From: Candidatus Dojkabacteria bacterium
GTDB taxonomy: Bacteria > Patescibacteriota > Dojkabacteria > SC72
DNA length: 64,000 nucleotides
Direction of reading: 5' to 3'
Assembly (NCBI GenBank): GCA_050943415.1
Contig: JBMNPD010000002.1
Span: forward strand, 5,036 to 69,035
In this document: positions 29,969 through 45,284 of the stretch, piece after piece
Numbering within the stretch: position 1 is the first letter of the stretch
Layout of the letters: every line of letters starts with the position of its first letter
Made by a program: the position numbers and the translations under genes
The notes under the pieces: generated by a model
Database searches by the model: none
The model's input: the letters and a program-made list of their open reading frames with translations, nothing else
What the model was told of the DNA's origin: nothing

Positions 29969-31408
29969 CTAAATAGTATCTATCTCTTCATTCTCTACTA
30001 CATCTACTTTACAACTCCCTCCTTGATATACACCATATCCTCCATGTTCAAAGTAAGTATTCTGACATGTCAAAACATCAATATTCTCCTGTGAAGAAAT
30101 TACTAAAATATCAACATTGTAAACCTTAGCATAATTCCTAAGAGTACGATTCTTTAAATCTGTAAACAACATATCCCTAAACACATTAGCATCATTCCTG
30201 TTCTTCTCTTCAAAATAAAGATAGATTGTAGAACTCTCATCATTTCTAACATCATCATAACGGAAAGAATTAAAATCATCAGCATACATAACCTTGACCT
30301 TAACAGTATCTTTCAAAGAATCATCAACTTCATACATAACGCCATTTATATGCCCATAAGTATTAAAAAACAACTTCTCATCCATATCAAAATCAACAAC
30401 CTCTGTCTTCATCTCTACACCCTCTGGTGCTTCATCTACAAACTTCATTTTCGAAACCTCATACGAAGAAATACCTACACCGAAAGCTAATCCCAATATG
30501 GAAGCTACAAAAGCTATGAAGACACGAGTCCACTTACTTCTTCTACTTAATACAAAATTAAAACCAACATACAGAAGCATTACAACAAAAGCAATAAATG
30601 ATACTGCTAGTAATATTGGACCAAAATATGCAATACCATTAAACAACAGAACAAACAACATAGAGAGACCTACACCAGAACAGAAAAGTAAGAAAAGAAA
30701 TGGTAATAGTACAAATATTACAAAAATCTTAACAAAAAACAAAAAGACATTACCTAAAAAAGAAAGAATACCAAAATCATACCTAACAACCTTTGTCTCA
30801 GTAACAACACTCTCATTACTCACCTCTTCCTCAATCTCAACATCTTTACTTTTCTCTTTTTCTTCTTCAAACCTATCCAAAAATCTTACTTTGTAAATAT
30901 ATACAAACAAACCAACTGCAACTATGAAATATGCAACCTCTACAACTAAATGCCAAATATTTGCAAAAACAACCCCAATATTCCTACCTAAACACAGAAA
31001 GACATTTCCCCCTAGACTATCCAAAGAGCTGAAAGGTATTTTGACACATAGGATTAATAGAAATAGCACAAAAATTTCCAATAGAAACTTAAACCTACCC
31101 TTTGTTGTAAGTGCTGCGAAATTCTTAAAAGTACCTCTAAGTAAGAGATTAAAGCCATTAAGCATATCTGAAAAAGTATATTTTTTACTCTGTTCACTCC
31201 TAATCTGTGCAACATCATCTTTCATTAACTCATCAAGAGTACAATTAAAAATATCACACATCTTAAGAATCTTTTCTGTCTCAGGATACGCTGCTCCAGA
31301 CTCCCATTTAGAGACAGCTTGTCTGGATACACCTAGCTTGTAAGCAAAATCTTCCTGAGAGAGATTTGCTGACTTACGTAGATGTTCTAAATTTTTTCTA
31401 AAACTCAT
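29969..31408 (-). CDS. XRE-family HTH protein fused to a multi-TM region and an extracytoplasmic domain (membrane-bound regulator)
   Basis: N-terminal LRKSANLSQEDFAYKLGVSRQAVSKWESG is a Cro/C1-type HTH. About four TM helices. C-terminal ~200 aa soluble domain. Confidence 0.7.
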   Translation of the reverse strand: MSFRKNLEHLRKSANLSQEDFAYKLGVSRQAVSKWESGAAYPETEKILKMCDIFNCTLDELMKDDVAQIRSEQSKKYTFSDMLNGFNLLLRGTFKNFAALTTKGRFKFLLEIFVLFLLILCVKIPFSSLDSLGGNVFLCLGRNIGVVFANIWHLVVEVAYFIVAVGLFVYIYKVRFLDRFEEEKEKSKDVEIEEEVSNESVVTETKVVRYDFGILSFLGNVFLFFVKIFVIFVLLPFLFLLFCSGVGLSMLFVLLFNGIAYFGPILLAVSFIAFVVMLLYVGFNFVLSRRSKWTRVFIAFVASILGLAFGVGISSYEVSKMKFVDEAPEGVEMKTEVVDFDMDEKLFFNTYGHINGVMYEVDDSLKDTVKVKVMYADDFNSFRYDDVRNDESSTIYLYFEEKNRNDANVFRDMLFTDLKNRTLRNYAKVYNVDILVISSQENIDVLTCQNTYFEHGGYGVYQGGSCKVDVVENEEIDTI

Positions 31409-31799: not shown

Positions 31800-32153
31800 A
31801 TGAGTAAAATTTACTTATACAAAACAACTTACGTGTCGAAACCAGAATTTTTGGCAGCTGCATACAATGCAGCTATTCTCATCGATCCTAGCTATGCTCA
31901 CTACATAATGACCAAATCAGAGGCACTCTTTCTTTTATGTCAAAAAATGTGGCGTGGTCATCCACAATACTTTGGCATCCTAAAAGGTAAACAAATTTTC
32001 CTCAACTTAGACGAAGAATGTGTTGATGTAGCAGCATACAATAAACACAATGGTAGGAGACTTGCTCAAAAGGTTCTACTCCTTTTGCAACAATCGCACC
32101 AACCTGAATCAGATGAAATACGAACGGCTCGCGATTACAACCCGTTCACTTAA
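31800..32153 (+). CDS. hypothetical small protein, paralog A (117 aa)
   Basis: Own promoter and AAGGAG RBS. Shares with paralog B: LAAAYNA/LAAFYNA, N..GxxLAQKVLxLLxQ, and an (I/E)(R/C)TAR C-terminus. Confidence 0.55.
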   Translation: MSKIYLYKTTYVSKPEFLAAAYNAAILIDPSYAHYIMTKSEALFLLCQKMWRGHPQYFGILKGKQIFLNLDEECVDVAAYNKHNGRRLAQKVLLLLQQSHQPESDEIRTARDYNPFT

Positions 32154-32606: not shown

Positions 32607-32927
32607 ATGAGTACTATTATTTCTGGTAAACCATTCACCAGGTCCCAATTATTAGCAGCTTTTTACAATGCAACCGCTACACCTCCTGGCATTAGGAACT
32701 TCCTGATGACCGAAGAAGATGCTGATAGATACTTGTATCAGTATAGCGACTACATAGATGAAGTAGAGGGCAAAAAACTTTACATCAATCTCTTCTTTCT
32801 TGACGAGATAGATGTAACCAAATATAACGAATTCAACGGCGAGAACTTGGCACAAAAAGTTCTCAACCTCCTCGAGCAAGGGTACGCCCCTGACTCAAAG
32901 GAAATCTGTACAGCTAGAATGAGCTAG
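32607..32927 (+). CDS. hypothetical small protein, paralog B (106 aa)
   Basis: See paralog A. The 3' end merges into the conserved flank (GCTAGAATGAGCTAGAATTAGAATGCCTAGG). Confidence 0.55.
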   Translation: MSTIISGKPFTRSQLLAAFYNATATPPGIRNFLMTEEDADRYLYQYSDYIDEVEGKKLYINLFFLDEIDVTKYNEFNGENLAQKVLNLLEQGYAPDSKEICTARMS

Positions 32928-33053
32928 AATTAGAATGCCTAGGATAGTTATATCTACATGAGTTCCACTCTATAAACCCTAGGCATATTTCTCTCCTTGC
33001 CAACCCATCCATAAATAAATATAATTCAGTATCTAAATTATCATGCCATATCT

Positions 33054-33725
33054 TTGATGACATACTCTCCTTTTACAACATGGATGTTAGAAAATGGAAT
33101 ATCTCAACAAACATTACAGTTACTAGTATCCATAACAGTAATAGCCACCATAGTAAGTATATTTCGATACATCATCGGAACAAAATCATACGGCATCTAC
33201 GCACCAATAATCCTAGCAATATCCTACTCATACACAGGACTAAGATACGGACTAGCAATAACCTTCATTACCGTAGCCACCACCCTACTCTCATACACCA
33301 TGCTTAAAAAAATACGAATGCACTACATCACTAGAATAGCCATCAACTACTGCTTACTTGCCATGACAATAATCATATTCATCATGACAATAAACAAATA
33401 CGGATTAGGACTAGAAAAAGTCTCCCTCATATCACCCCTAGCCCTCATATCAATAACTGCCCTCTCAGACTTCTTCATAAAACAATTCACACAGAAATCA
33501 TTAAAAGTATCAATCTCACTCCTACTAGAAACCGTACTCATAGCAACAATCGGTTGGTACATAATCACAAGAGTTTCCATCTCTAACTACATGATTAACA
33601 ACCTCTGGATAATTCCAATCCTCATCATAATCAACCTAGTCATAGGACAATTTAAAGGATTAAGAATCAAAGAAATAATTAGATTTAAATCACTTTCAGA
33701 CGAGAAAGAAAATGTTTCTAAATAA
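33054..33725 (+). CDS. polytopic (about 7TM) membrane protein of the kind associated with alpha-L-glutamate-ligase-like ATP-grasp systems (7TM module without transglutaminase domain)
   Basis: 223 aa, 6-7 hydrophobic helices. Overlaps the downstream ATP-grasp gene by 14 nt. The classification comes from gene context, not from a sequence motif. Confidence 0.6.
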   Translation: MMTYSPFTTWMLENGISQQTLQLLVSITVIATIVSIFRYIIGTKSYGIYAPIILAISYSYTGLRYGLAITFITVATTLLSYTMLKKIRMHYITRIAINYCLLAMTIIIFIMTINKYGLGLEKVSLISPLALISITALSDFFIKQFTQKSLKVSISLLLETVLIATIGWYIITRVSISNYMINNLWIIPILIIINLVIGQFKGLRIKEIIRFKSLSDEKENVSK

Positions 33726-35160
33726 CAAATACAAAGAAATACTTGGAGTAAACAGACGAAATCAAGAATATATTCGACCATACAACTCCAACAAAGCAAA
33801 AAATATTGCTGACAACAAAATATTAACAAAAAGAATTCTTAGTAGAAATGGAATTCAAACGCCTGAAGTATACAAACTAATTAGAAACAGAAAACAATTA
33901 GAGTTTCTAAATTGGGAATCATTACCAAAAAGCTTTGTCATAAAACCAAATAAAGGAACTGGAGGTAGTGGAATAGTAATCTTCTACGGTAAGAAGAAAG
34001 GAGAACTTGCATGGATTAGACCTAATGGTGATGTAATGAGTAAGAAAGATATAACCCTTCACATAGCAAACATACTAGAAGGCAGATACTCCATGGGTAA
34101 CAAAAATGATATAGCCATAATTGAGGAACGAGTAAAAACTGACCCATTCCTAAAGCAATACTCCTACAAAGGAGTACCAGACCTTAGAATAATCTGCTTC
34201 AATGGAGTACCTGTAATGGCAATGACTAGAATCCCAACCAAAAGATCAAACGGTACTGCGAACCTACACTCAGGAGCAATATGTACAGGAATTGATATTG
34301 CAACAGGCATTACTACCTACTCTATGCAGATGAATCTTAAAAGTCCTCTAGATGATATATATGAAGATATAGAGGCCACTACAGATCTAAAAGAAAACAA
34401 AAAGTTAAGTGGAATAGCTATACCTAACTGGAATGAGATATTGGAAATAGCTTTGAAATGTCAAAAAGTAAGCAAAATTGGCTTCATAGGTGTAGATATA
34501 ACAATCGATGCAGACAAAGGACCTGTTGTATTTGAACTAAACGCTAGACCAGGACTTGGTATACAAGTTGCAAACAAAGCAGGTTTAAGATCTAGGTTAG
34601 AATTAGTTAAAGGGATTAAAGTAAAAAGCATTAAACACGGTATTAAGATTGCAAAAGATCTCTTCGGTGGAGAGATAGAGGAAAGTATCGAATCCATTAG
34701 TGGTAGAAAAGTTGTAAATATTGTAGAAAAAGTAACCATATTTAAACAGACAAATAAGAAAGAAAAAGAAGACAAATTACAACCACTCAGAGCCTTTATG
34801 GACACAGGATACATGACATCTAGAATAACAGAGACAACCGCACACAGAATGGGCTTCATCTCTACAACAAAATATTTCAATTCTTTAGATATACCTAAAA
34901 AATTCAATTCACATAAAGAGGCACAGGAATATATCGATCAGAATAACAAAATATTGACTATGGAAGAAAAAATAAAGAGAATTGCTAGAGTTGTTGATGA
35001 TGGTGATATTAAAATCCGTCCAGTCATTGACGTTACTATTAAAATTGCAGGAGAGATAAAGGATTTAGAAGTTGTAATAATGCAGGACCTAGAGTATCCT
35101 GTAATCATAGGACGTACTGATTTAAAAGGCTATTTAATTGATACAACAAATACATTTTAA
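33712..35160 (+). CDS. alpha-L-glutamate-ligase-like ATP-grasp enzyme (RimK-related, GVNRRNxEYI type) fused to a C-terminal retropepsin-like aspartic protease domain
   Basis: N-terminal ILGVNRRNQEYIRPYNSNKAKNIADNKILTKRIL...GIQTPEVY signature. ATP-grasp core (FVIKPNKGTGGSGIVIF; VVFELNARPGLG). C-terminal ~140 aa carries DTG (LRAFMDTGYMTSRI) and YPVIIGRTDLKGYLIDT. Confidence 0.75.
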   Translation: MFLNNKYKEILGVNRRNQEYIRPYNSNKAKNIADNKILTKRILSRNGIQTPEVYKLIRNRKQLEFLNWESLPKSFVIKPNKGTGGSGIVIFYGKKKGELAWIRPNGDVMSKKDITLHIANILEGRYSMGNKNDIAIIEERVKTDPFLKQYSYKGVPDLRIICFNGVPVMAMTRIPTKRSNGTANLHSGAICTGIDIATGITTYSMQMNLKSPLDDIYEDIEATTDLKENKKLSGIAIPNWNEILEIALKCQKVSKIGFIGVDITIDADKGPVVFELNARPGLGIQVANKAGLRSRLELVKGIKVKSIKHGIKIAKDLFGGEIEESIESISGRKVVNIVEKVTIFKQTNKKEKEDKLQPLRAFMDTGYMTSRITETTAHRMGFISTTKYFNSLDIPKKFNSHKEAQEYIDQNNKILTMEEKIKRIARVVDDGDIKIRPVIDVTIKIAGEIKDLEVVIMQDLEYPVIIGRTDLKGYLIDTTNTF

Positions 35161-35162
35161 TT

Positions 35163-36143
35163 ATGAAAACATACAAAGAATATCTAAAAGAATCAGGGAA
35201 CATACATCTAGCATATTATGTACAAGCAGCAGACAAGCTTGGGATTAAGTATAAGATTTTGGTTAAAGGCTTACTTGCTGAATTTAATGCAAATAACAAA
35301 TATTGGCATATAATAAATACAGCTACTCCACTAACAACAACTACATCTACAACAATATGTAAAAGAAAAAATCTAACACATTTGATTTTAAGAGAACATA
35401 ATGTACCTGTACCTATTCAACAAGATTTACTCGCACCAATAGATGCTATAAAATTCTTTGCTGAACATAAAGATATTGTCATCAAGCCAACACAACAGCT
35501 AGGAGGAAAAGGTGTTACAATACTACCTCAGAACGAGGAGCAAGTACTAAAGGCTTTTGATATAGCCCTAGAATCTTCACATTCTAAGACTACTACAAAA
35601 GTCATAGGTGAGAAGTTTGTCCATGGAGAGAACTACAGATTCTTAGTACTAGGAGATGAGGTTATAGCAGTTGCTAGAAGAAAGTCCGCCCATGTTATAG
35701 GAAATAGCAAGGACAGTATAAGAAAACTCATAGAGAACAGTAATGCACAAAGAAAAGACACTCTCCTCATGCCCATTGTCATAGATAACGAAGTAAACAT
35801 TAAGCTACAAAGAGATGGTCTAAATCTAGAAAGTGTTCCAAAAGAAGGGCAAGAAGTCATACTTCGATATAACTGCAATCTTACTACAGGCGGTACTACA
35901 GAAGAATGTATGGAGGAAGTAAATGATTACTACAAGCAAATAGCCATAAAAGCAGTAAAGGTTGTAGGTTCTAAATTTGGAGGTGTTGATATAATAGCTA
36001 AGGACATATCAAAGCCTGACGAAGTTGCTGTTAATGAGATAAACTACAATCCAGGTTTGAGATTACATTACAAAGTAGACAAAGGAAACGTGGTTGATGT
36101 TGCCTCCATCATAATGGAATACATCAGAGATAAATATATATAA
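35163..36143 (+). CDS. ATP-grasp ligase, cyanophycin-synthetase N-domain-like (326 aa)
   Basis: VIKPTQQLGGKGVTIL. ENYRFLVLGDEVIAVARRKSAHVIGNSKDSIRKLIENSNAQR parallels CphA (DYRLLVVG.K.VAA..R.PA.VIGDGK.TI.ELIE..N.DP.R). VDIIAKDISKP. Confidence 0.7.
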   Translation: MKTYKEYLKESGNIHLAYYVQAADKLGIKYKILVKGLLAEFNANNKYWHIINTATPLTTTTSTTICKRKNLTHLILREHNVPVPIQQDLLAPIDAIKFFAEHKDIVIKPTQQLGGKGVTILPQNEEQVLKAFDIALESSHSKTTTKVIGEKFVHGENYRFLVLGDEVIAVARRKSAHVIGNSKDSIRKLIENSNAQRKDTLLMPIVIDNEVNIKLQRDGLNLESVPKEGQEVILRYNCNLTTGGTTEECMEEVNDYYKQIAIKAVKVVGSKFGGVDIIAKDISKPDEVAVNEINYNPGLRLHYKVDKGNVVDVASIIMEYIRDKYI

Positions 36144-36161
36144 TTTAACACTCCAAATCCA

Positions 36162-37865
36162 ATGAAAGACACATGGGTTCTACAAGGCTTAAATTTCATT
36201 TCACCTACTTCAGTAGTAGTTATGGGAATGGAAGAAAACAAAGATGTTAAAAAACTACTTGATTTAATATCATCATATCACCCCATTTTTATAAAAAAGT
36301 ACTACTTCAAAGACTCCTATCTGTATATTGAAACACCTATACCATTTCTTTGGAGAGAAGCTAGTGAATACCTAAAGAAGCTTGCCAAACAGAAAATGTC
36401 ATATGAAGAATGTAGAGAATATATTGTAGAAGTCATCATAAAACACCGAATAAAATCTATGTCAACCATACCTATATTACATAGTGCATTAACACAAGGG
36501 TACGAGGTTACACCATATATTGTGAGCGACAAAGTTATAGCTGTTGATGATGTAGGTTATACAAAAACATTCAACCGTAGATATACCTTAGGTTGTGGAA
36601 AGAATTCCCATGTAACTTTTTCTATATCTTCTTCTAAAGACGCTGTCGTAGCAAAAACAACTCAAAGAGACAAATATATTACTAATACGATGATTTCTAA
36701 ACTTGGTCTTCCTATGCCTACAAACTATATTGTTAATGATAAAGCTGATATTAAAAAAGTTTGGAAAAAACTTAATAAACCTGTTGTTGTTAAACCAGTA
36801 GGTTTAACAGGTGGTTCAGGAGTTGTAGTAGATATTAATACAATAGAACAAGCAGAGAAAGCATTTGATTTTGCTACCAAAGGTATTAAAACAAAACAAA
36901 GGAAAGAGTGGCAAACTAAAATAATGGTACAAGAACAGGTAGAAGGTGAAGATTATAGATTACTAGTTGTAGATGAGAAATTGGAAGTTGTTACCAAAAG
37001 AATCCCTGCATTCATCGTAGGTGACGGCAAGAGTACAATCGAGGAACTAATCGAACAAACCAATGCGGATCCTAGAAGAGATATTACTAATCCAACTCAT
37101 ACTTTGAAACCCATAAAGATAGATGATCCCCTACTCGACTATCTTAAGGAACAGAAACTTTCGTTGAAAGATATTCCAGAGAAAGATGAGAAGATACAGG
37201 TAAGAAAGGTTGCAAGTATGAGTCAGGGAGGTATAACTGAGGATTTTACAGATCAGGTTAGTGCAGAGATTAAATATATTGTTGAAAGTATTGCTCAATC
37301 TATTCATGCATTTACATTAGGTGTAGATATTTTGTGTAAAGATATTAGCAAACCACTTACTCAAGACAATGGTGCTATTCTAGAGGTCAATACTATGCCA
37401 GAGGCATATCTAAATCTCTACCCTGTTTTGGGTACAAAGAGAGATTATGTAGCAGATACATATGTTAAGAAATTACTCAAGGATAATAGATGCAAAAAAA
37501 TAGTAGTTGTTGGTAATCCTGAGAAAGATATACCTACTCTTCTTAAGGACAAGTTCCTTTTCTGGTCATATCTAAAACAAGATGATGTAGTTGGAGAATA
37601 CAGAGAGGGAGAGATAAGGATAAATGGATTGGAAATAAATAATGGCTTAGAGAAATGGAAAGGTATAGAGGCACTAAAGGTTAATGCTTCTCTAGATGCA
37701 ATAGTTATTCATCATAGGAATTGGGAGGATGTACAAGCTAATGGTTTAGGTTTCAACAAGATAGACTTGTTAATAGTTACTAAAGATATGAGAAAAGATG
37801 ATAGATTTAAGCAAATGATTAAATATAGGTTAAGTGGTTATATATCTAGAATAAGGGTAATCTAA
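36162..37865 (+). CDS. ATP-grasp ligase, cyanophycin-synthetase N-domain-like (567 aa, extra N- and C-terminal regions, no Mur-ligase domain)
   Basis: VVKPVGLTGGSGVVV. DYRLLVVDEKLEVVTKRIPAFIVGDGKSTIEELIEQTNADPRRDITNP is the CphA hallmark. GVDILCKDISKPL. EVNTMPEAYLN. Confidence 0.75.
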   Translation: MKDTWVLQGLNFISPTSVVVMGMEENKDVKKLLDLISSYHPIFIKKYYFKDSYLYIETPIPFLWREASEYLKKLAKQKMSYEECREYIVEVIIKHRIKSMSTIPILHSALTQGYEVTPYIVSDKVIAVDDVGYTKTFNRRYTLGCGKNSHVTFSISSSKDAVVAKTTQRDKYITNTMISKLGLPMPTNYIVNDKADIKKVWKKLNKPVVVKPVGLTGGSGVVVDINTIEQAEKAFDFATKGIKTKQRKEWQTKIMVQEQVEGEDYRLLVVDEKLEVVTKRIPAFIVGDGKSTIEELIEQTNADPRRDITNPTHTLKPIKIDDPLLDYLKEQKLSLKDIPEKDEKIQVRKVASMSQGGITEDFTDQVSAEIKYIVESIAQSIHAFTLGVDILCKDISKPLTQDNGAILEVNTMPEAYLNLYPVLGTKRDYVADTYVKKLLKDNRCKKIVVVGNPEKDIPTLLKDKFLFWSYLKQDDVVGEYREGEIRINGLEINNGLEKWKGIEALKVNASLDAIVIHHRNWEDVQANGLGFNKIDLLIVTKDMRKDDRFKQMIKYRLSGYISRIRVI

Positions 37866-37977
37866 TACCCTACTCACCAAATTAAGTCAAATTTGGTGAA
37901 TGACACTCACTAGATTTGTGTGAATATGGGGAATGGGTTTGTTGTTTTTTAAAGGAGAGATTTTATAAAAGAAACAT

Positions 37978-38029
37978 CCTAGTGCCTGAGATTTATGAGG
38001 GAATAATCCACTCTACTCAGGACACTAGG
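37978..38029. terminator. long inverted-repeat hairpin (copy 0): bidirectional terminator between the ATP-grasp operon and small gene 1
   Basis: CCTAGTGCCTGAG...CTCAGGACACTAGG around a ~26-nt loop GGGAATAATCCACTCTA. Same family as the hairpins at 38470..38525 and 39021..39075. Confidence 0.5.
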
Positions 38030-38041
38030 TCCACATTAAAA

Positions 38042-38290
38042 TTATTTCTTATCCTTAATCTTTTCTATAAAGAAGATTACTGATACTCCATAATATAGCC
38101 ACCCTACTATGCTTACAAACACATATAGGAATTTAATTGGTAATAAGTCGGCTAGTAGGATTGTAAATGGTCCAACTAGCATTGCAGATGAATACTCATA
38201 TTTCTCGAAATCCTTTCTCCATAAATAATATGATCTAACAACTAAACCAATAATTATACTAAGTAGACAAAACCAACGATGAAAACTCAT
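38042..38290 (-). CDS. small membrane protein 1 (82 aa, 2-3 TM)
   Basis: Consensus promoter TTGTCA-17-(TG)TACAAT upstream at 38345..38378 and RBS AAGGAGAAACAG ATG. A terminator hairpin lies downstream. Confidence 0.5.
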   Translation of the reverse strand: MSFHRWFCLLSIIIGLVVRSYYLWRKDFEKYEYSSAMLVGPFTILLADLLPIKFLYVFVSIVGWLYYGVSVIFFIEKIKDKK

Positions 38291-38329
38291 CTGTTTCTCC
38301 TTTTCTTTTTAATTCCTCTAAAGAAATTT

Positions 38330-38530
38330 TTAATGCGCTACACTACATTGTACCAATTTTTGCCTCACTTGACAATACTATAGGTCGGGATACTTCTAAT
38401 ATAATAAAACTCCTCTTCACAAGTAAATAACAAAAAAGAAAAGTTAAAACCATATATACAAAAATAATAATCTAGCGCCTGAGATTCTGGGGAATAATCC
38501 ACCCTATATATCTCAGGCACTAGATCCATG
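38330..38530 (-). repeat. conserved ~200-bp non-coding module (terminator hairpin + spacer + near-consensus promoter), copy 1 of 2 full copies
   Basis: About 85% identical to 38880..39085. Shared pieces: CTCCTCTTCACAAGTAAA…AAAAGAAAAGTTAAAACCATATATACAAAAA…TAATAATCTAGCGCCTGAGATTCTG(G/A)GG…ATATATCTCAG…, and the promoter core TACCAATTTTTGCC(T/C)CACTT(G/A)ACAA. Confidence 0.7.
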
Positions 38531-38533
38531 CAA

Positions 38534-38833
38534 TCAAGATTTTAAGGATTTAATTTTATTTCTTAGAAGAGACAAATTCTTTCTGCAGTTCAAAAAGGAT
38601 TTCTTTAATGAGGACCATTCGTCCTTACAATAATAACCGATATTTACACATAAGATTGCCCAAACAACCCATTTATTGCTTATACCCTCCAATCCGTCAG
38701 AGAATACTGCAATAAACAGTGTTGATAAGAACATGACATTTCTCCTGATATGTTGATCATTCTTTAAATCCATATAACACAAACAAGAGAAATAAAAACC
38801 TACAACACCTAATAATATAAACCCTGTCCACAT
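38534..38833 (-). CDS. small membrane protein 2 (99 aa, Cys-rich, about 3 TM)
   Basis: Promoter TTGTTA-17-(TG)TATAAT at 38891..38925. RBS AAAGGAGAATGTT ATG. A terminator hairpin lies downstream. Confidence 0.5.
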   Translation of the reverse strand: MWTGFILLGVVGFYFSCLCYMDLKNDQHIRRNVMFLSTLFIAVFSDGLEGISNKWVVWAILCVNIGYYCKDEWSSLKKSFLNCRKNLSLLRNKIKSLKS

Positions 38834-38879
38834 AACATTCTCCTTTATTTTTCGATCCTATCCTAAAAAATCTTGATTT

Positions 38880-39085
38880 TGAAAGTACGACTGTACATTA
38901 TACCAATTTTTGCCCCACTTAACAACGCTATAGGATAACACACTTCTAATATAATAAAACTCCTCTTCACAAGTAAAAACAAAAAAGAAAAGTTAAAACC
39001 ATATATACAAAAAAATAATAATCTAGCGCCTGAGATTCTGAGGGATAACCACTCTATATATCTCAGACACCAGATCTCCGTACAA
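38880..39085 (-). repeat. conserved ~200-bp non-coding module (terminator hairpin + spacer + promoter), copy 2
   Basis: See 38330..38530. Confidence 0.7.
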
Positions 39086-39086
39086 A

Positions 39087-39248
39087 TTAAAAGGTGGAGT
39101 TTAACAACTCCTTAATACCTTTAATTTCTTCTCTCGCAAGAGAGAGGTAGGTTTCCAATTCTTGCAACATCTTACACCTCTTTCTTACTGCGTAAACTAC
39201 TACTAATGCTACTCCCAGAGCAGCAAAGACAAAAAGTATTGCATACAT
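39087..39248 (-). CDS. small membrane-anchored protein 3 (53 aa, 1 TM + amphipathic tail)
   Basis: MYAILFVFAALGVALVVVYAVRKRCKMLQELETYLSLAREEIKGIKELLNSTF. Own promoter (TGATATAAT) and RBS AAGAAAGAGG. Followed by the conserved hairpin. Below the 60-aa ORF-track cutoff. Confidence 0.35.
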   Translation of the reverse strand: MYAILFVFAALGVALVVVYAVRKRCKMLQELETYLSLAREEIKGIKELLNSTF

Positions 39249-39388
39249 AATTAAACCTCTTTCTTACTGAATGTACGATAATGTAATTATATCAAGCTTG
39301 TATACACTACTCAACACTATAAGACCACATACTCCTCCCCACCCATGATATAATAAAACATTAATATTAATTTAAAAATATTCAAACA

Positions 39389-40342
39389 ATGAAATACCTA
39401 ATCATAGACAAAAGACAAAGAGTAGAAGTTAAAACTATGGGTGAAATACCTACAGGTTCTGCAAGATTAGTTGAAGAATTAGAAAAAAGAAACATAGAAT
39501 GTGATTTCATATACAATGACCAACTCGAATTCATATACCAAGACCAAAAAACAACAATACTAGCTGGTGGCAACGACATTCTCACATATACCCACATCAT
39601 ATTCAGAGGCCATGCACTACACATAGACAAGGAATACCATTTCAAGAGATACATAATCGACCATATAGACGAATACAATTCCAAAAATCCAGACAAGAAG
39701 ATACTAGTGCAAAACTCAGAAGCAATCAAAAGATTCCCCTACTACAACAAAATAGAAATTGCTCAAATCTGTAACAAACACAACCTCCCATACTTCAACA
39801 CATACTACAGAACAGATGGAGAATATACACAAGAAAGAAACTACCTTAAACAATACCCACTCATCATAAAAGAGTATACAGGTGCAAACAGAGTAGAAAT
39901 GATAGATGGAGTTGAAAAAATCAAAAAGAATGTATTTAAACTAGAGAAAGACGAAGACTACAAACAAGAAGGATTAGATGGACAAGACCTAACCAACTTC
40001 TTTATCCAAGAATTCTCAGATGCAGGCGAAGACTACAGAATCTTCGTAAAGCTAGGAAAAGTAATAGCAGGATGGAAAAGAAAAGCTACCTCTGGATTTA
40101 TGACAGTAAGCAAAGGAGAGTATGAAATGTACAATGAGCCAAATGAAGAAATAAAAGAGATTGCTGAGAAAATGGCATCTGTTTTAGATGCAGACTTCAT
40201 GGCTGTAGACTTCATGTACATCCATGGTAAGCCACACATACAAGAGATAAGCTTCCATCCAGGATACAAAGCATACGAGACAAAGATAGAGGGTACTCCT
40301 GTGAACATCGCAGAAGCAATAATTACTGCGTTTAAGGAGTAA
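39389..40342 (+). CDS. RimK-like ATP-grasp ligase (317 aa)
   Basis: LIIKEYTGANRVEM. EDYRIFVKLGKVIAGWKRKATSGFMT is the ATP-grasp central/flexible-loop pattern (DYR..V.G.KV.A..KR). AVDFMYIHGKPHIQEI. Extended -10 promoter TGATATAAT at about 39346. The stop abuts the convergent DUF1704 gene. Confidence 0.65.
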   Translation: MKYLIIDKRQRVEVKTMGEIPTGSARLVEELEKRNIECDFIYNDQLEFIYQDQKTTILAGGNDILTYTHIIFRGHALHIDKEYHFKRYIIDHIDEYNSKNPDKKILVQNSEAIKRFPYYNKIEIAQICNKHNLPYFNTYYRTDGEYTQERNYLKQYPLIIKEYTGANRVEMIDGVEKIKKNVFKLEKDEDYKQEGLDGQDLTNFFIQEFSDAGEDYRIFVKLGKVIAGWKRKATSGFMTVSKGEYEMYNEPNEEIKEIAEKMASVLDADFMAVDFMYIHGKPHIQEISFHPGYKAYETKIEGTPVNIAEAIITAFKE

Positions 40343-41506
40343 TTAGAGACCTACCTTCTTAAATATACTTAACCACTCTTCCTTACTAGGAACATTGGTA
40401 GCCTTTGGAATAAGACCGTCCTCTACCCATTCACATTGCTTGAAAGTAATCTTTCCTGAGTAAAGCATATTGTACAACAAAGGATTCTTCTCTAATCTAG
40501 CAGACACCTTCTTAAAACCTCTAAAGTAAACAACATCCTTAGCATAGATACCTGGTTTTGAAGTGTCTGATAATCCTCTCTTCACCCTGTATGTAGTACT
40601 AAATGCAGAGAATTTCGGCAATATTGCATACAAACAGTTATACAACTCTCTAAACGTCATCTTTTGACCAACATATATAGCATATACAAGAGCAACCTTT
40701 TTTCTAAGCCAATTCTCTGTAAGAAGATCCATATTACTTTCATTCCACGTAGCAAGACCCTCCTCTACATCTAAATACTCTGGTAAAGTAGCATTACCAA
40801 GTGCGGGAAACCCACTATTAGAACCATTTACAGACCTTAACACATGCGTACCAACCTCATGAACAATGGTCTTTTTCAATTTCAACTTACTCCTAACAAT
40901 ATTTTTATCAACCAATATTTGCTTCCTTTTAATACCTACTTTTACACTATTCTTAGCAATATTCATAGATTCAGCAACCTCCCAATCATCAAGACCTAAT
41001 ATTGAAAACACCTTTCTAAAAACCTCTGAAATCTCATCATAACCTAACAATTCATCAGTATCAACTTTCTTGCTACTTTCTATAAGGTTGTAGTTACTAA
41101 CATTCCCCCGAAGTACTCTACATGAATTCCTAAACAACTTAGCAAAAGGCAAACCAAACCTAGCAGTAGAAATCTCTGTTACCAACTCATTATTTCCTAC
41201 AGCTTTTATTAATTCGTTAGCCTCCTTTTTTGAAGCTATGAGGTCAATATAGAAAGAAGAAATCCTAGGATCAACATCAGAAATTTCCTCCACAGTAGAG
41301 AGAAACTTCAGTATTTTATCATTCTTGTTAGCAACACCCCTATATTTGAACACAGGATTATATGTATCTGAATCAAAAAATTTCTTCTTCTCCTCCTCAA
41401 GATTAATTGGGGTAAAAACTAAAGCTGTTGGAAGTCTTAACTGATCTAAGAAAGTTGTTACTTCATCAAGCTTCATCTGCTTTTTCTTTTTATCAAAAAT
41501 CCCCAT
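40343..41506 (-). CDS. DUF1704 (QEGLA-motif, flavohemoglobin expression-modulating family; MATCAP-like zinc carboxypeptidase fold)
   Basis: HEVGTHVLRSVNG is a putative HExx(x)H zinc site. EEGLATW is a variant of the family-defining QEGLA motif. 387 aa, typical for this family. Confidence 0.65.
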   Translation of the reverse strand: MGIFDKKKKQMKLDEVTTFLDQLRLPTALVFTPINLEEEKKKFFDSDTYNPVFKYRGVANKNDKILKFLSTVEEISDVDPRISSFYIDLIASKKEANELIKAVGNNELVTEISTARFGLPFAKLFRNSCRVLRGNVSNYNLIESSKKVDTDELLGYDEISEVFRKVFSILGLDDWEVAESMNIAKNSVKVGIKRKQILVDKNIVRSKLKLKKTIVHEVGTHVLRSVNGSNSGFPALGNATLPEYLDVEEGLATWNESNMDLLTENWLRKKVALVYAIYVGQKMTFRELYNCLYAILPKFSAFSTTYRVKRGLSDTSKPGIYAKDVVYFRGFKKVSARLEKNPLLYNMLYSGKITFKQCEWVEDGLIPKATNVPSKEEWLSIFKKVGL

Positions 41507-41525: not shown

Positions 41526-42545
41526 TTATCTCCTAAAATCTCGGTTAAAGGTAAAACTCCTCTCTCCAGTAGCTATCAATTCCAAAGCTATACCTGTACC
41601 CTTAACAACACAGTATATCGGTTCATCGGCAACATGTGAAGGAACGCCTGTAGCCCTAGAGAACAACTTGTCCAAATTCCTCAACTTAGATGTACCACCA
41701 CTCATCACCATTCCTCTGTCTATGATATCAGCAGAAAGCTCAGGCGGAGTCTTCTCCAAAACATTCTTAATACTTCGAATAATTGACTTCAAAGGAAAAT
41801 CAATAGCCTTAGCCACATCATTAGAATTAACAACAATCGACTTCGGCATACCTGCACCAACATCTCTACCCCTTACCTCCATCTCTGCAGGATCTTTAAC
41901 CTCAACTGCAGACCCTATCTTTATCTTAATACTCTCTGCAGTCTGCTCTCCAATCATAAGTCCTTTTTTCTTCCTCATGTATGAAATGATATATTCATTA
42001 AGAGAATCTCCTGCTACTCTTAGCGACTCATACTCCACTATTCCATCAAGAGACATAACAGCAATCTCTGCAGTACCACCTCCCATATTCACAATCATAT
42101 TACCAGAGGAAGTATGAATAGGAAGCTGTGCACCTAAAGCTGCAAGAAGAGGCTCTGGCAAAAGCGTAATACTCTTTGCACCAACAGAGTTAGCTGCTTT
42201 CAAAACAGCTCTCTCCTCCACAGATGTAATACCTGCAGGAACACTAATAACAACATCAGGCTTAAAGAACCTAGATTTACCAAGTGCTTTGTCAAAGAAA
42301 TACCTAAGCAATGCCTCTGTTACCCTAGAATCAGCTATAACTCCACTTCTCAAAGGCCTCTTTGCAACAATATTATCGGGAGTCTTGCCAATCATCTCCT
42401 TTGCTTCCTTACCAACAGCTATGACTGTAAAAGTATTAACATCAATAGCAACAACAGTTGGCTCTGTGAGAACAATACCCTCCCCCTGTACAAAAACTAC
42501 AGAGTTTGCAGTACCTAAATCTATACCCAGTTTTTTTCCAATCAT
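41526..42545 (-). CDS. second MreB/Mbl-like actin-family ATPase (orphan paralog)
   Basis: LGIDLGTANSVVF...PTVVAIDV. NMGGGTAEIAV. 339 aa. Diverged from the mreB at 10823. Confidence 0.8.
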   Translation of the reverse strand: MIGKKLGIDLGTANSVVFVQGEGIVLTEPTVVAIDVNTFTVIAVGKEAKEMIGKTPDNIVAKRPLRSGVIADSRVTEALLRYFFDKALGKSRFFKPDVVISVPAGITSVEERAVLKAANSVGAKSITLLPEPLLAALGAQLPIHTSSGNMIVNMGGGTAEIAVMSLDGIVEYESLRVAGDSLNEYIISYMRKKKGLMIGEQTAESIKIKIGSAVEVKDPAEMEVRGRDVGAGMPKSIVVNSNDVAKAIDFPLKSIIRSIKNVLEKTPPELSADIIDRGMVMSGGTSKLRNLDKLFSRATGVPSHVADEPIYCVVKGTGIALELIATGERSFTFNRDFRR

Positions 42546-45210: not shown

Positions 45211-45284
45211 CACACCCGGTCGGAATCGAACCAACAACCTACGCGTTAGGAGTGCGTTGCTCTATCCAATTGAGCTACGGGTGC
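45211..45284 (-). tRNA. tRNA-Arg (anticodon CCU)
   Basis: Reverse complement GCACCCGTAGCTCAATTGGATAGAGCAACGCACTCCTAACGCGTAGGTTGTTGGTTCGATTCCGACCGGGTGTG. Arg-type D-arm. Anticodon loop CTCCTAA. Confidence 0.8.

Follow-up and report, generated by a model that had tools for sequence, protein, structure and literature searches.

A MATCAP-family peptidase convergent with an Rlo-type ATP-grasp ligase operon in Dojkabacteria: a candidate trimming enzyme for the ligase product

In a 64,000-nucleotide stretch of the genome of a Candidatus Dojkabacteria bacterium (contig JBMNPD010000002.1 of assembly GCA_050943415.1, positions 5,036 to 69,035; hereafter, the window), a gene for a RimK-like ATP-grasp protein (39389-40342, plus strand; 317 amino acids (aa), stop codon TAA at 40340-40342) and a gene for a protein of the MATCAP/DUF1704 family (40343-41506, minus strand; 387 aa, stop codon at 40343-40345) converge with zero spacing, so that, as the original prediction made from this DNA had stated, their stop codons abut at 40342/40343. 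Does this arrangement reflect a functional link between a ligase and a peptidase and, if so, which ligase is involved and what is the substrate? The original prediction was a two-gene writer/eraser pair for a C-terminal amino acid tag. The general link between ligase and peptidase that it implies is supported by gene fusions, operons and zinc ligands, whereas the two-gene unit, the partner and the substrate that it named have to be revised. The reading that we favor, and consider reasonably probable, is that the window encodes a Dojkabacteria Rlo-type amidoligase system, the product of which is trimmed by the MATCAP-like predicted zinc carboxypeptidase.

The 387-aa protein belongs to the Pfam family MATCAP (PF08014; E-value 4.2e-26, 92.2 bits compared with the gathering cutoff of 27), with a match that spans residues 42-362 and profile positions 2-329 of 365. 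It scores well below the cutoff of the QEGLA family TIGR02421 (E-value 3e-30, 105.7 bits vs 338.65), and the respective motif reads EEGLA, not QEGLA. The motifs HEVGTH (H216, E217, H221) and EEGLA (E248, E249) match, residue for residue, HEIGTH and EEGLA of human MATCAP (PDB 7z5g and 7z6s, E-value 1.8e-14; 7z6s is the human protein with the catalytic Glu mutated, hence HQIGTH). Across 96 aligned family members, whose identity to the window protein ranges from 24 to 86%, H216, E217 and H221 do not vary, E249 is conserved at 90% or above, and K309, R310, Y327 and several other residues are likewise conserved; the alignment of the zinc ligands with those of human MATCAP thus agrees with the original prediction. 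The AlphaFold2 model of the protein (mean predicted local distance difference test score, pLDDT, of 95.4) adopts the catalytic-domain fold seen in 7z5g. In a Foldseek search of the PDB with this model, the sole significant match was human MATCAP (7z5g_B; E-value 1e-10, probability 1.00, TM-scores of 0.60/0.69 over 370 alignment columns), and the runner-up had an E-value of 0.24. The N-terminus reads as one without a signal peptide. The sequence and the model together depict a protein that is predicted to be cytoplasmic and looks like an active zinc carboxypeptidase. An identical protein (100% over the 361 residues covered) is encoded in the metagenome contig L087. Homologues of this protein and of the RimK-like one carry the names Candidatus Dojkabacteria or candidate division WS6, which places the window in a bacterium of the candidate phyla radiation.

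The eukaryotic MATCAP/TMCP proteins are carboxypeptidases that act on the Glu-rich C-terminal tails of tubulin and also deglutamylate; in TMCP2, the human paralogue, the activity requires the Glu of the HExxxH motif (E329) and E364, located 35 residues further on (PMC10499314). Bacterial DUF1704 proteins had been described as annotated only as QEGLA proteins, which needs correction because the NCBI name of some family members (e.g., P0054) is 'tyrosine/phenylalanine carboxypeptidase domain-containing protein'.

The evidence that carries the link between this peptidase family and ATP-grasp ligases comes from other lineages. An exhaustive HMMER search yielded 1,731 MATCAP-family representatives, of which the best 150 were inspected for fusions; nine of these 150 combine ATPgrasp_ST (PF14397) and MATCAP (PF08014) in a single chain of 644-814 aa. 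When one genome per species was scanned and the best 80 of 344 confirmed loci were analyzed, 27 of the 80, from Peregrinibacteria, Gracilibacteria, Peribacteria and other Patescibacteria, carry an ATPgrasp_ST::MATCAP fusion, and in all but two of these (25/27) a gene for a protein of ~500 aa with PKD and 7TM_transglut domains is located directly upstream. The ATP-grasp half of the fusion is of the same family (PF14397) as the product of the window gene 33712-35160, and the MATCAP domain occupies the C-terminal place that in this product is held by a retropepsin-like domain. Other architectures place separate genes side by side. Locus L023 consists of co-directional genes with overlapping or abutting ends that encode a seven-transmembrane (7TM) protein, ATPgrasp_ST with a retropepsin domain, MATCAP, N-formylglutamate amidohydrolase (FGase), an ATP-grasp protein, a CphA-like ATP-grasp protein and a GNAT protein, and L082 combines an ATPgrasp_ST::MATCAP fusion with a CphA-like ATP-grasp gene and a second, convergent MATCAP gene. 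In replicons of Shinella and Sinorhizobium, FGase and MATCAP are accompanied by an ATP-grasp of the glutathione synthetase (GSH-S) type; Vibrio encodes an FGase::MATCAP fusion; in Photobacterium, a GshB-like ATP-grasp gene overlaps the FGase::MATCAP gene; and in three DPANN archaea a RimK-like gene directly follows MATCAP. In all, at least five architectures tie the family to three different ATP-grasp subfamilies. These fusions and adjacencies, found in several unrelated lineages, bear out the co-occurrence that the original prediction proposed to look for, and a functional link between ligase and peptidase is well supported by genome context.

FGase is repeatedly fused or adjacent to MATCAP in Vibrionaceae, Rhizobiaceae and one metagenome-assembled genome that resembles the candidate phyla radiation (CPR) bacteria (e.g., L084 6053-8044, L168 4804-6798 and L023 9059-10894), and is absent from the window; this recurrence suggests that FGase is a third hydrolase acting on the same product. 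In Sinorhizobium medicae (L085), two genes for group II intron reverse transcriptases lie between the FGase and QEGLA genes; in Shinella (L167), the two genes are adjacent and overlap. A gene for an L25/Ctc ribosomal protein with a long acidic C-terminal tail (…EEEPVEAAEEAEKPAEEGGEEGEKKEEGSEEEGEK; L025 10165-10821) is found in nine fusion loci in total, downstream of the ATP-grasp::MATCAP fusion, after queA and on the opposite strand (two genes away in L025, L052 and L053), which may be coincidental synteny.

In the window, the unit is not the proposed pair of two genes. The RimK-like gene is the last one of a five-gene operon (33054-40342, plus strand) that encodes a 7TM protein and four ATP-grasp ligases, so that the complete unit is an Rlo-like, four-ligase operon with a second peptidase domain, of the retropepsin-like type, and the convergent MATCAP-like gene. 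The first gene (33054-33725, plus strand, 223 aa) encodes an RloB-like membrane protein (PF14402, 7TM_transglut, E-value 9e-17) that matches the profile in the 7TM part alone (positions 52-247) and has no extracytoplasmic domain, be it an inactive transglutaminase or PKD; its position is conserved in the Dojkabacteria loci, and it overlaps the next gene by 14 nt. That second gene (33712-35160, plus strand) encodes an RloC-like ATP-grasp (PF14397, E-value 2.9e-68; 293.4 bits with TIGR02291, just under the cutoff of 314.2) in residues ~1-300, with an intact E-x-N motif (E275 and N277 are invariant), followed in residues ~350-482 by a RimB/RloA-like, retropepsin-like domain with D-T-G within MDTG. 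The latter domain is recognized by PF05618 below the gathering cutoff (E-value 1.1e-4) and by the NCBIfam profiles RloA3/RloA2 (E-value ~4e-3), and its best PDB match is 9g59/9g58 (E-value 0.11, with the MDTG motif aligned). Because this domain is fused to the C-terminus of a cytoplasmic ATP-grasp, it comes without a signal peptide and does not represent a secreted peptidase of the Rlo type. Thus, the PF14397-type ligase and the adjoining PF14402 7TM protein of the Rlo systems are present, and the periplasmic domain and the secreted peptidase are missing.

The third gene (35163-36143, plus strand, 326 aa) encodes a stand-alone ATP-grasp that resembles the backbone-elongating G domain of cyanophycin synthetase (NF010623, E-value 1.6e-64; model positions 166-470, 218 bits vs the cutoff of 877) and contains the E-I-N motif. 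The product of the fourth gene (36162-37865, plus strand, 567 aa) is a CphA2-like ATP-grasp that consists of an N-terminal domain, the G domain and a C-terminal remnant (NF010623, E-value 2.5e-76; model positions 186-573, 258 bits vs 877). The best PDB sequence matches of the 567-aa protein are 8fxh (E-value 1.1e-45), CphA1 7wac/7lg5 (E-value ~1e-42) and 7ta5 (E-value 2.5e-41). Neither of these two ligases is a full cyanophycin synthetase, that is, a protein with the N, G and Mur-ligase-like M domains that scores above the cutoff. The highest-scoring promoter-like site of the region (11/12, 32997-33025) is located before the 7TM gene and is not statistically enriched; promoter and terminator scans of the cluster gave results no better than shuffled sequence, and an Rfam search detected no element within the cluster.

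The RimK-like protein, which the original prediction took for the partner of the peptidase, stands apart from the other ligases in the Mg site: the E-x-N motif is canonical in the other three, whereas here it reads E286-I-S288, with S288 aligned to the Asn of E-V-N in RimK. This position is occupied by Ser in 44 of 48 Dojkabacteria sequences and by Gly in the remaining 4, and by Asn in the archaeal relatives. Otherwise, the protein is strongly conserved (63-89% identity across 47 relatives), and K161, D215, R217, R231, D274 and E286 are invariant. By score, the protein passes only the cutoff of the Pfam RimK domain (PF08443; E-value 2.9e-7, 30.7 bits vs 21) and remains below those of TIGR00768 (E-value 9e-13, 48.2 bits vs 143.4) and of the S6-Glu ligase family NF007764 (19.1 bits vs 331). 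The AlphaFold2 model (pLDDT 92.3) has the three-domain ATP-grasp fold of RimK, and its best Foldseek matches are RimK 5zct/7qys (E-value 6e-16, TM-scores of 0.70/0.76), followed by ArgX/LysX and graspetide ligases. All these enzymes act on peptide or protein substrates. To judge from the substitution at the Mg site, the RimK-like protein may be a modified or a non-catalytic subunit. With Ser in place of the Mg-binding Asn in the abutting RimK-like protein, and with the fusions pointing to the RloC-type PF14397 ligase (33712-35160), the latter is the better candidate for the partner of the peptidase.

By analogy, the system can be expected to work like RimK/RimB and RloABC. RimK, which makes poly-Glu, extends the C-terminus of S6 with α-Glu residues that are taken off again by the retropepsin RimB (PMC11957051). 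The likeness is that an ATP-grasp adds residues at a C-terminus and a peptidase encoded by an adjoining gene removes them, and that the 317-aa window protein is structurally closest to RimK. The differences are that this protein reaches none of the RimK-family cutoffs and has no Asn in the E-x-N motif, and that the window peptidase is a metallocarboxypeptidase, exo-acting by analogy, whereas RimB is an aspartic endopeptidase. The resemblance to RloABC of Pseudomonas aeruginosa extends to the joint encoding of a 7TM_transglut protein, a cytoplasmic PF14397/TIGR02291 ATP-grasp and a retropepsin-like peptidase. Unlike RloABC, the window has the retropepsin-like domain fused to the ATP-grasp and a 7TM protein without the periplasmic inactive-transglutaminase domain, and adds three more ATP-grasp ligases and a MATCAP-type metallocarboxypeptidase; in the RloC-type fusions of sister CPR lineages, the retropepsin has given way entirely to MATCAP. 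In Pseudomonas, Rlo has an important part in the integrity of the envelope, in hypo-osmotic tolerance and in resistance to antibiotics, RloA cleaves poly-Glu, and the phenotypes of rloA-null mutants are suppressed by the loss of RloB or RloC; RloB has been reported as 96% proteobacterial (PMC11957051).

Two of the window ligases are closest to the G domain of CphA, and the logic of a polymer synthase accompanied by a dedicated hydrolase is shared with CphA1/CphA2 and cyanophycinase. The CphA G domain elongates the poly-Asp backbone at its C-terminus. The window, however, encodes neither the Mur-ligase-like M domain nor cyanophycinase (a serine peptidase of family S51), and the scores are far below the cutoffs, so that cyanophycin is not a safe assumption for the product. 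The proteobacterial QEGLA (TIGR02421) genes belong to the same Pfam family and are linked to an ATP-grasp of the glutathione synthetase type and to an FGase neighbor or fusion; the window differs in the EEGLA motif, in the family of the partner ligase and in the lack of FGase.

The same writer/eraser logic is embodied by human MATCAP/TMCP1 (KIAA0895L) and TMCP2 (KIAA0895), which share with the window peptidase PF08014, the HExxxH motif with the downstream Glu in EEGLA, and the fold, and which trim Glu-rich tails extended by the TTL/TTLL ATP-grasps. The identity with human MATCAP is ~21%, and the alignment of the window protein is confined to the catalytic domain. This organism has no tubulin, and the accompanying ligases are of the RloC, CphA, RimK and GSH-S types, not TTL. 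A special relationship between the RloC-type ATP-grasp and TTL was considered and rejected, given that the profile matches RimK and CphA first and TTL-family chains with E-values from 1e-3 to 1. Human MATCAP is closer to the archaeal/CPR branch of the family (47-65 bits) than to the proteobacterial QEGLA branch, which is the most distant (21 bits).

These comparisons suggest the following tentative scheme. By analogy with RimK, CphA and LysX/ArgX, the four ATP-grasps would extend a growing peptide, polymer or protein tail at its C-terminal carboxylate, at the expense of ATP, with amino acids that are probably acidic. The MATCAP-like enzyme would remove residues from the C-terminus of the product, alongside or instead of the fused retropepsin-like domain, and such trimming would set the length of the product, reverse the modification or recycle the product, a role akin to that of RimB and RloA toward RimK and RloC. 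The 7TM protein would couple the system to the membrane. It appears most likely that the peptide built by the ligases is also the one that the peptidase trims, and we infer their action on the same molecule from the genome context. A protein, a free polymer and an envelope component are all conceivable as the acceptor; the protein C-terminus that had been named is accordingly one of the possibilities, and no better a fit than a poly(amino acid) or peptide that is free or exported. In Photobacterium damselae, low salinity induces the adjacent genes for GshB-like (38-fold) and QEGLA (27.5-fold) proteins, and also rimK (52-fold) (PMC10308900). The joint response of the two neighbors speaks for the link between ligase and peptidase. 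The induction at low salinity, together with the hypo-osmotic phenotype of the rlo mutants, provides a hint, by analogy, of a role in osmotic or envelope homeostasis, which is speculation.

Several observations weigh against the trimming of the ligase product by the MATCAP-like peptidase. The peptidase gene is on the strand opposite to the ligase operon and is co-directional with mreB and trpS. The system already has a retropepsin-like peptidase domain, which makes the need for a second trimming enzyme less obvious. Outside the fusions, 64 of the 67 non-fusion loci, most of them archaeal, from DPANN, Methanosarcinales and unassigned metagenome contigs, have no detectable ATP-grasp in the stretch examined. 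Clustering of the ±2 neighbors of 52 archaeal loci, with identities assigned by sequence inspection rather than by profile search, revealed recurrent neighbors that are all housekeeping genes, such as those for a NOL1/NOP2-type methyltransferase, RNase HII, peptidyl-tRNA hydrolase, HtpX, ThrRS and similar proteins. Because most archaeal members have no ligase neighbor, the ligase link is not universal for the family, and solitary members next to housekeeping genes imply that MATCAP proteins can work without a neighboring ligase. The literature that we searched contains no biochemical function for any prokaryotic DUF1704/MATCAP member. It also contains no paper on DUF1704/MATCAP together with ATP-grasp, a statement subject to a possible earlier mention of the proteobacterial FGase/COG3930/GshB-like neighborhood.

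The conservation within Dojkabacteria bears on the same question from two sides. A metagenome scan returned 80 loci. In the ~47 Dojkabacteria-like contigs long enough to include both genes, with MATCAP identities of 50-69%, MATCAP is convergent with the RimK-like gene, with a spacing of less than 20 nt in 28 of them; this convergent arrangement is not due to chance, and its persistence down to 52% MATCAP identity, in spite of the insertions at the junctions, counts in favor of the preferred reading. The five genes of the ligase operon are contiguous in other Dojkabacteria. The order in the longer contigs is uvrA, PEGA, (trpS), mreB, MATCAP, the convergent RimK-like gene, the 567-aa and 326-aa ligases, RloC with retropepsin and 7TM, with rplL, rplJ and rplA usually just past the 7TM gene, and the adjacency of mreB and MATCAP is kept in all Dojkabacteria-like contigs. 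Insertions of 0.2-4 kb are present at the MATCAP/RimK-like junction in several of the ~47 contigs, and insertions of ~1.3-2.3 kb at the junction of the RimK-like and 567-aa genes, the same junction at which the window carries an insert. At the former junction, L001 (9227-9673) has an IS200-type Y1 transposase between the MATCAP and RimK-like genes, and inserts of ~4 kb occupy this place in L096, L097, L100, L105, L107 and L138. Because the whole ~20-kb block is syntenic across Dojkabacteria, conservation in this lineage alone cannot separate function from inherited gene order, another point on the opposing side.

These facts make room for an alternative that we regard as possible, albeit unlikely, namely that the MATCAP-like protein is a stand-alone housekeeping carboxypeptidase involved in peptide turnover and transcribed with mreB and trpS, and that its abutment with the ligase operon is inherited synteny, functionally meaningless in this organism even if the domain serves alongside ATP-grasp ligases in other lineages. 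It fits with the orientation of the gene, opposite to the ligases and only 19 nt from the co-directional mreB, with the synteny of the entire 20-kb block (rplA-rplJ-rplL/ligase operon/MATCAP-mreB-(trpS)-PEGA-uvrA) across Dojkabacteria, with the tolerance of 0.2-4 kb insertions, including the IS200-type transposase, between MATCAP and the RimK-like gene, and with the solitary state of most archaeal members beside housekeeping genes. However, at least four other lineages have recruited MATCAP to systems made of the same parts (7TM, PF14397 and CphA-like ATP-grasp), and the survival of the junction in ~47 contigs, though insertions occur there, suggests that the neighborhood is kept.

The dedicated pair of the original prediction, in which the RimK-like ligase writes and the MATCAP-like peptidase erases a C-terminal tag on a specific protein, in the manner of RimK and S6 or of TTL and MATCAP on tubulin, seems to us improbable. 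The nearest matches of the RimK-like model are indeed enzymes with protein C-termini as substrates (RimK on RpsF; ArgX/LysX on LysW), a RimK-like gene comes directly after MATCAP in the three DPANN archaea, and the zero spacing is kept in many Dojkabacteria contigs. Against these points stand the Ser or Gly that replaces the Mg-binding Asn in all 48 Dojkabacteria RimK-like sequences, the scores far below every RimK-family equivalog cutoff, the constant place of the gene as the last one of a four-ligase operon, never as a solitary partner, and the identity of the fusion partner in other lineages, which is the PF14397 ligase. Furthermore, no candidate for the tagged protein came to light: L7/L12 and MreB, which are encoded in the syntenic block, end in variable, non-acidic C-termini. 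L7/L12, the gene of which (rplL) is located directly upstream in most relatives, was rejected as a substrate because its C-termini are ELA, ELE or ELV, without a conserved acidic tail.

That the peptidase processes MreB or another filament protein, in parallel to tubulin detyrosination, is a notion we hold to be highly improbable: in the window, mreB precedes the peptidase gene by 19 nt on the same strand, an adjacency kept in all Dojkabacteria-like contigs, and the substrate of the eukaryotic homologue is a cytoskeletal polymer, but no MreB gene is found near MATCAP in the 80 genome loci outside Dojkabacteria, the window protein aligns solely to the catalytic domain of human MATCAP, and MreB was rejected as a substrate in view of its varying C-termini (…FRR, …SIT, …GYN), which have no conserved removable residue or acidic tail. 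An anti-phage defense function was rejected as well, as none of the six proteins of the cluster has a match in PADLOC.

The remaining features of the window frame the system without being part of it. The gene for MreB (41526-42545, minus strand; PF06723, E-value 1.5e-128), for which we claim no membership in the system, is probably co-transcribed with the MATCAP-like gene, which follows it after 19 nt on the same strand. The ligase operon itself is split by a lineage-specific insert of ~1.5 kb (37866-39388) between the 567-aa and RimK-like genes, which consists of tandem repeat units of ~550 bp (e.g., 38326-38448 and 38876-38998 are 79% identical). Each unit encompasses a small membrane protein ORF on the minus strand (38042-38290, 38534-38833 and 39087-39248), a promoter-like site with an extended -10 element and an imperfect hairpin (CTAGCGCCTGAGAT...ATCTCAGGCACTAG). 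The 567-aa and RimK-like genes abut in L001-L003 and in most metagenome loci, and the insert is absent from most relatives; inserts of similar size are located at the same junction in L088, L133-L137 and L143. At the other end of the operon, the 7TM gene directly follows rplL on the same strand in most Dojkabacteria-like contigs. The window differs in having, between rplL and the 7TM gene, a gene for a helix-turn-helix/membrane protein (29969-31408, minus strand) and paralogous small ORFs (31800-32153 and 32607-32927). A tRNA gene (45211-45284, minus strand; Rfam RF00005, 61.6 bits) lies between the gene for the PEGA-domain protein and uvrA.

The Rlo-type system with a MATCAP-like trimming enzyme, the reading that we prefer, has implications beyond this locus. 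The bacterial and archaeal DUF1704/MATCAP proteins form at least 1,700 clusters at 50% identity, and the fusions and operons described here provide them with a concrete candidate role, that of carboxypeptidases acting on the products of ATP-grasp ligases. The recently described Rlo system is extended well past Proteobacteria, into the CPR bacteria, where the peptidase module is exchangeable, being represented by a retropepsin, by a MATCAP metallopeptidase or by both. The findings also provide a prokaryotic setting in which the tubulin-code eraser could have originated. A bolder proposal, which we put forward as doubtful, is that MATCAP carboxypeptidases and ATP-grasp ligases make up an ancient, repeatedly re-assorted prokaryotic module for C-terminal tails, that the tubulin-tail cycle (TTL/TTLL vs MATCAP/TMCP) might be its descendant, and that the Dojkabacteria version would serve for the reversible tagging of a cellular protein, not for the synthesis of a free polymer.

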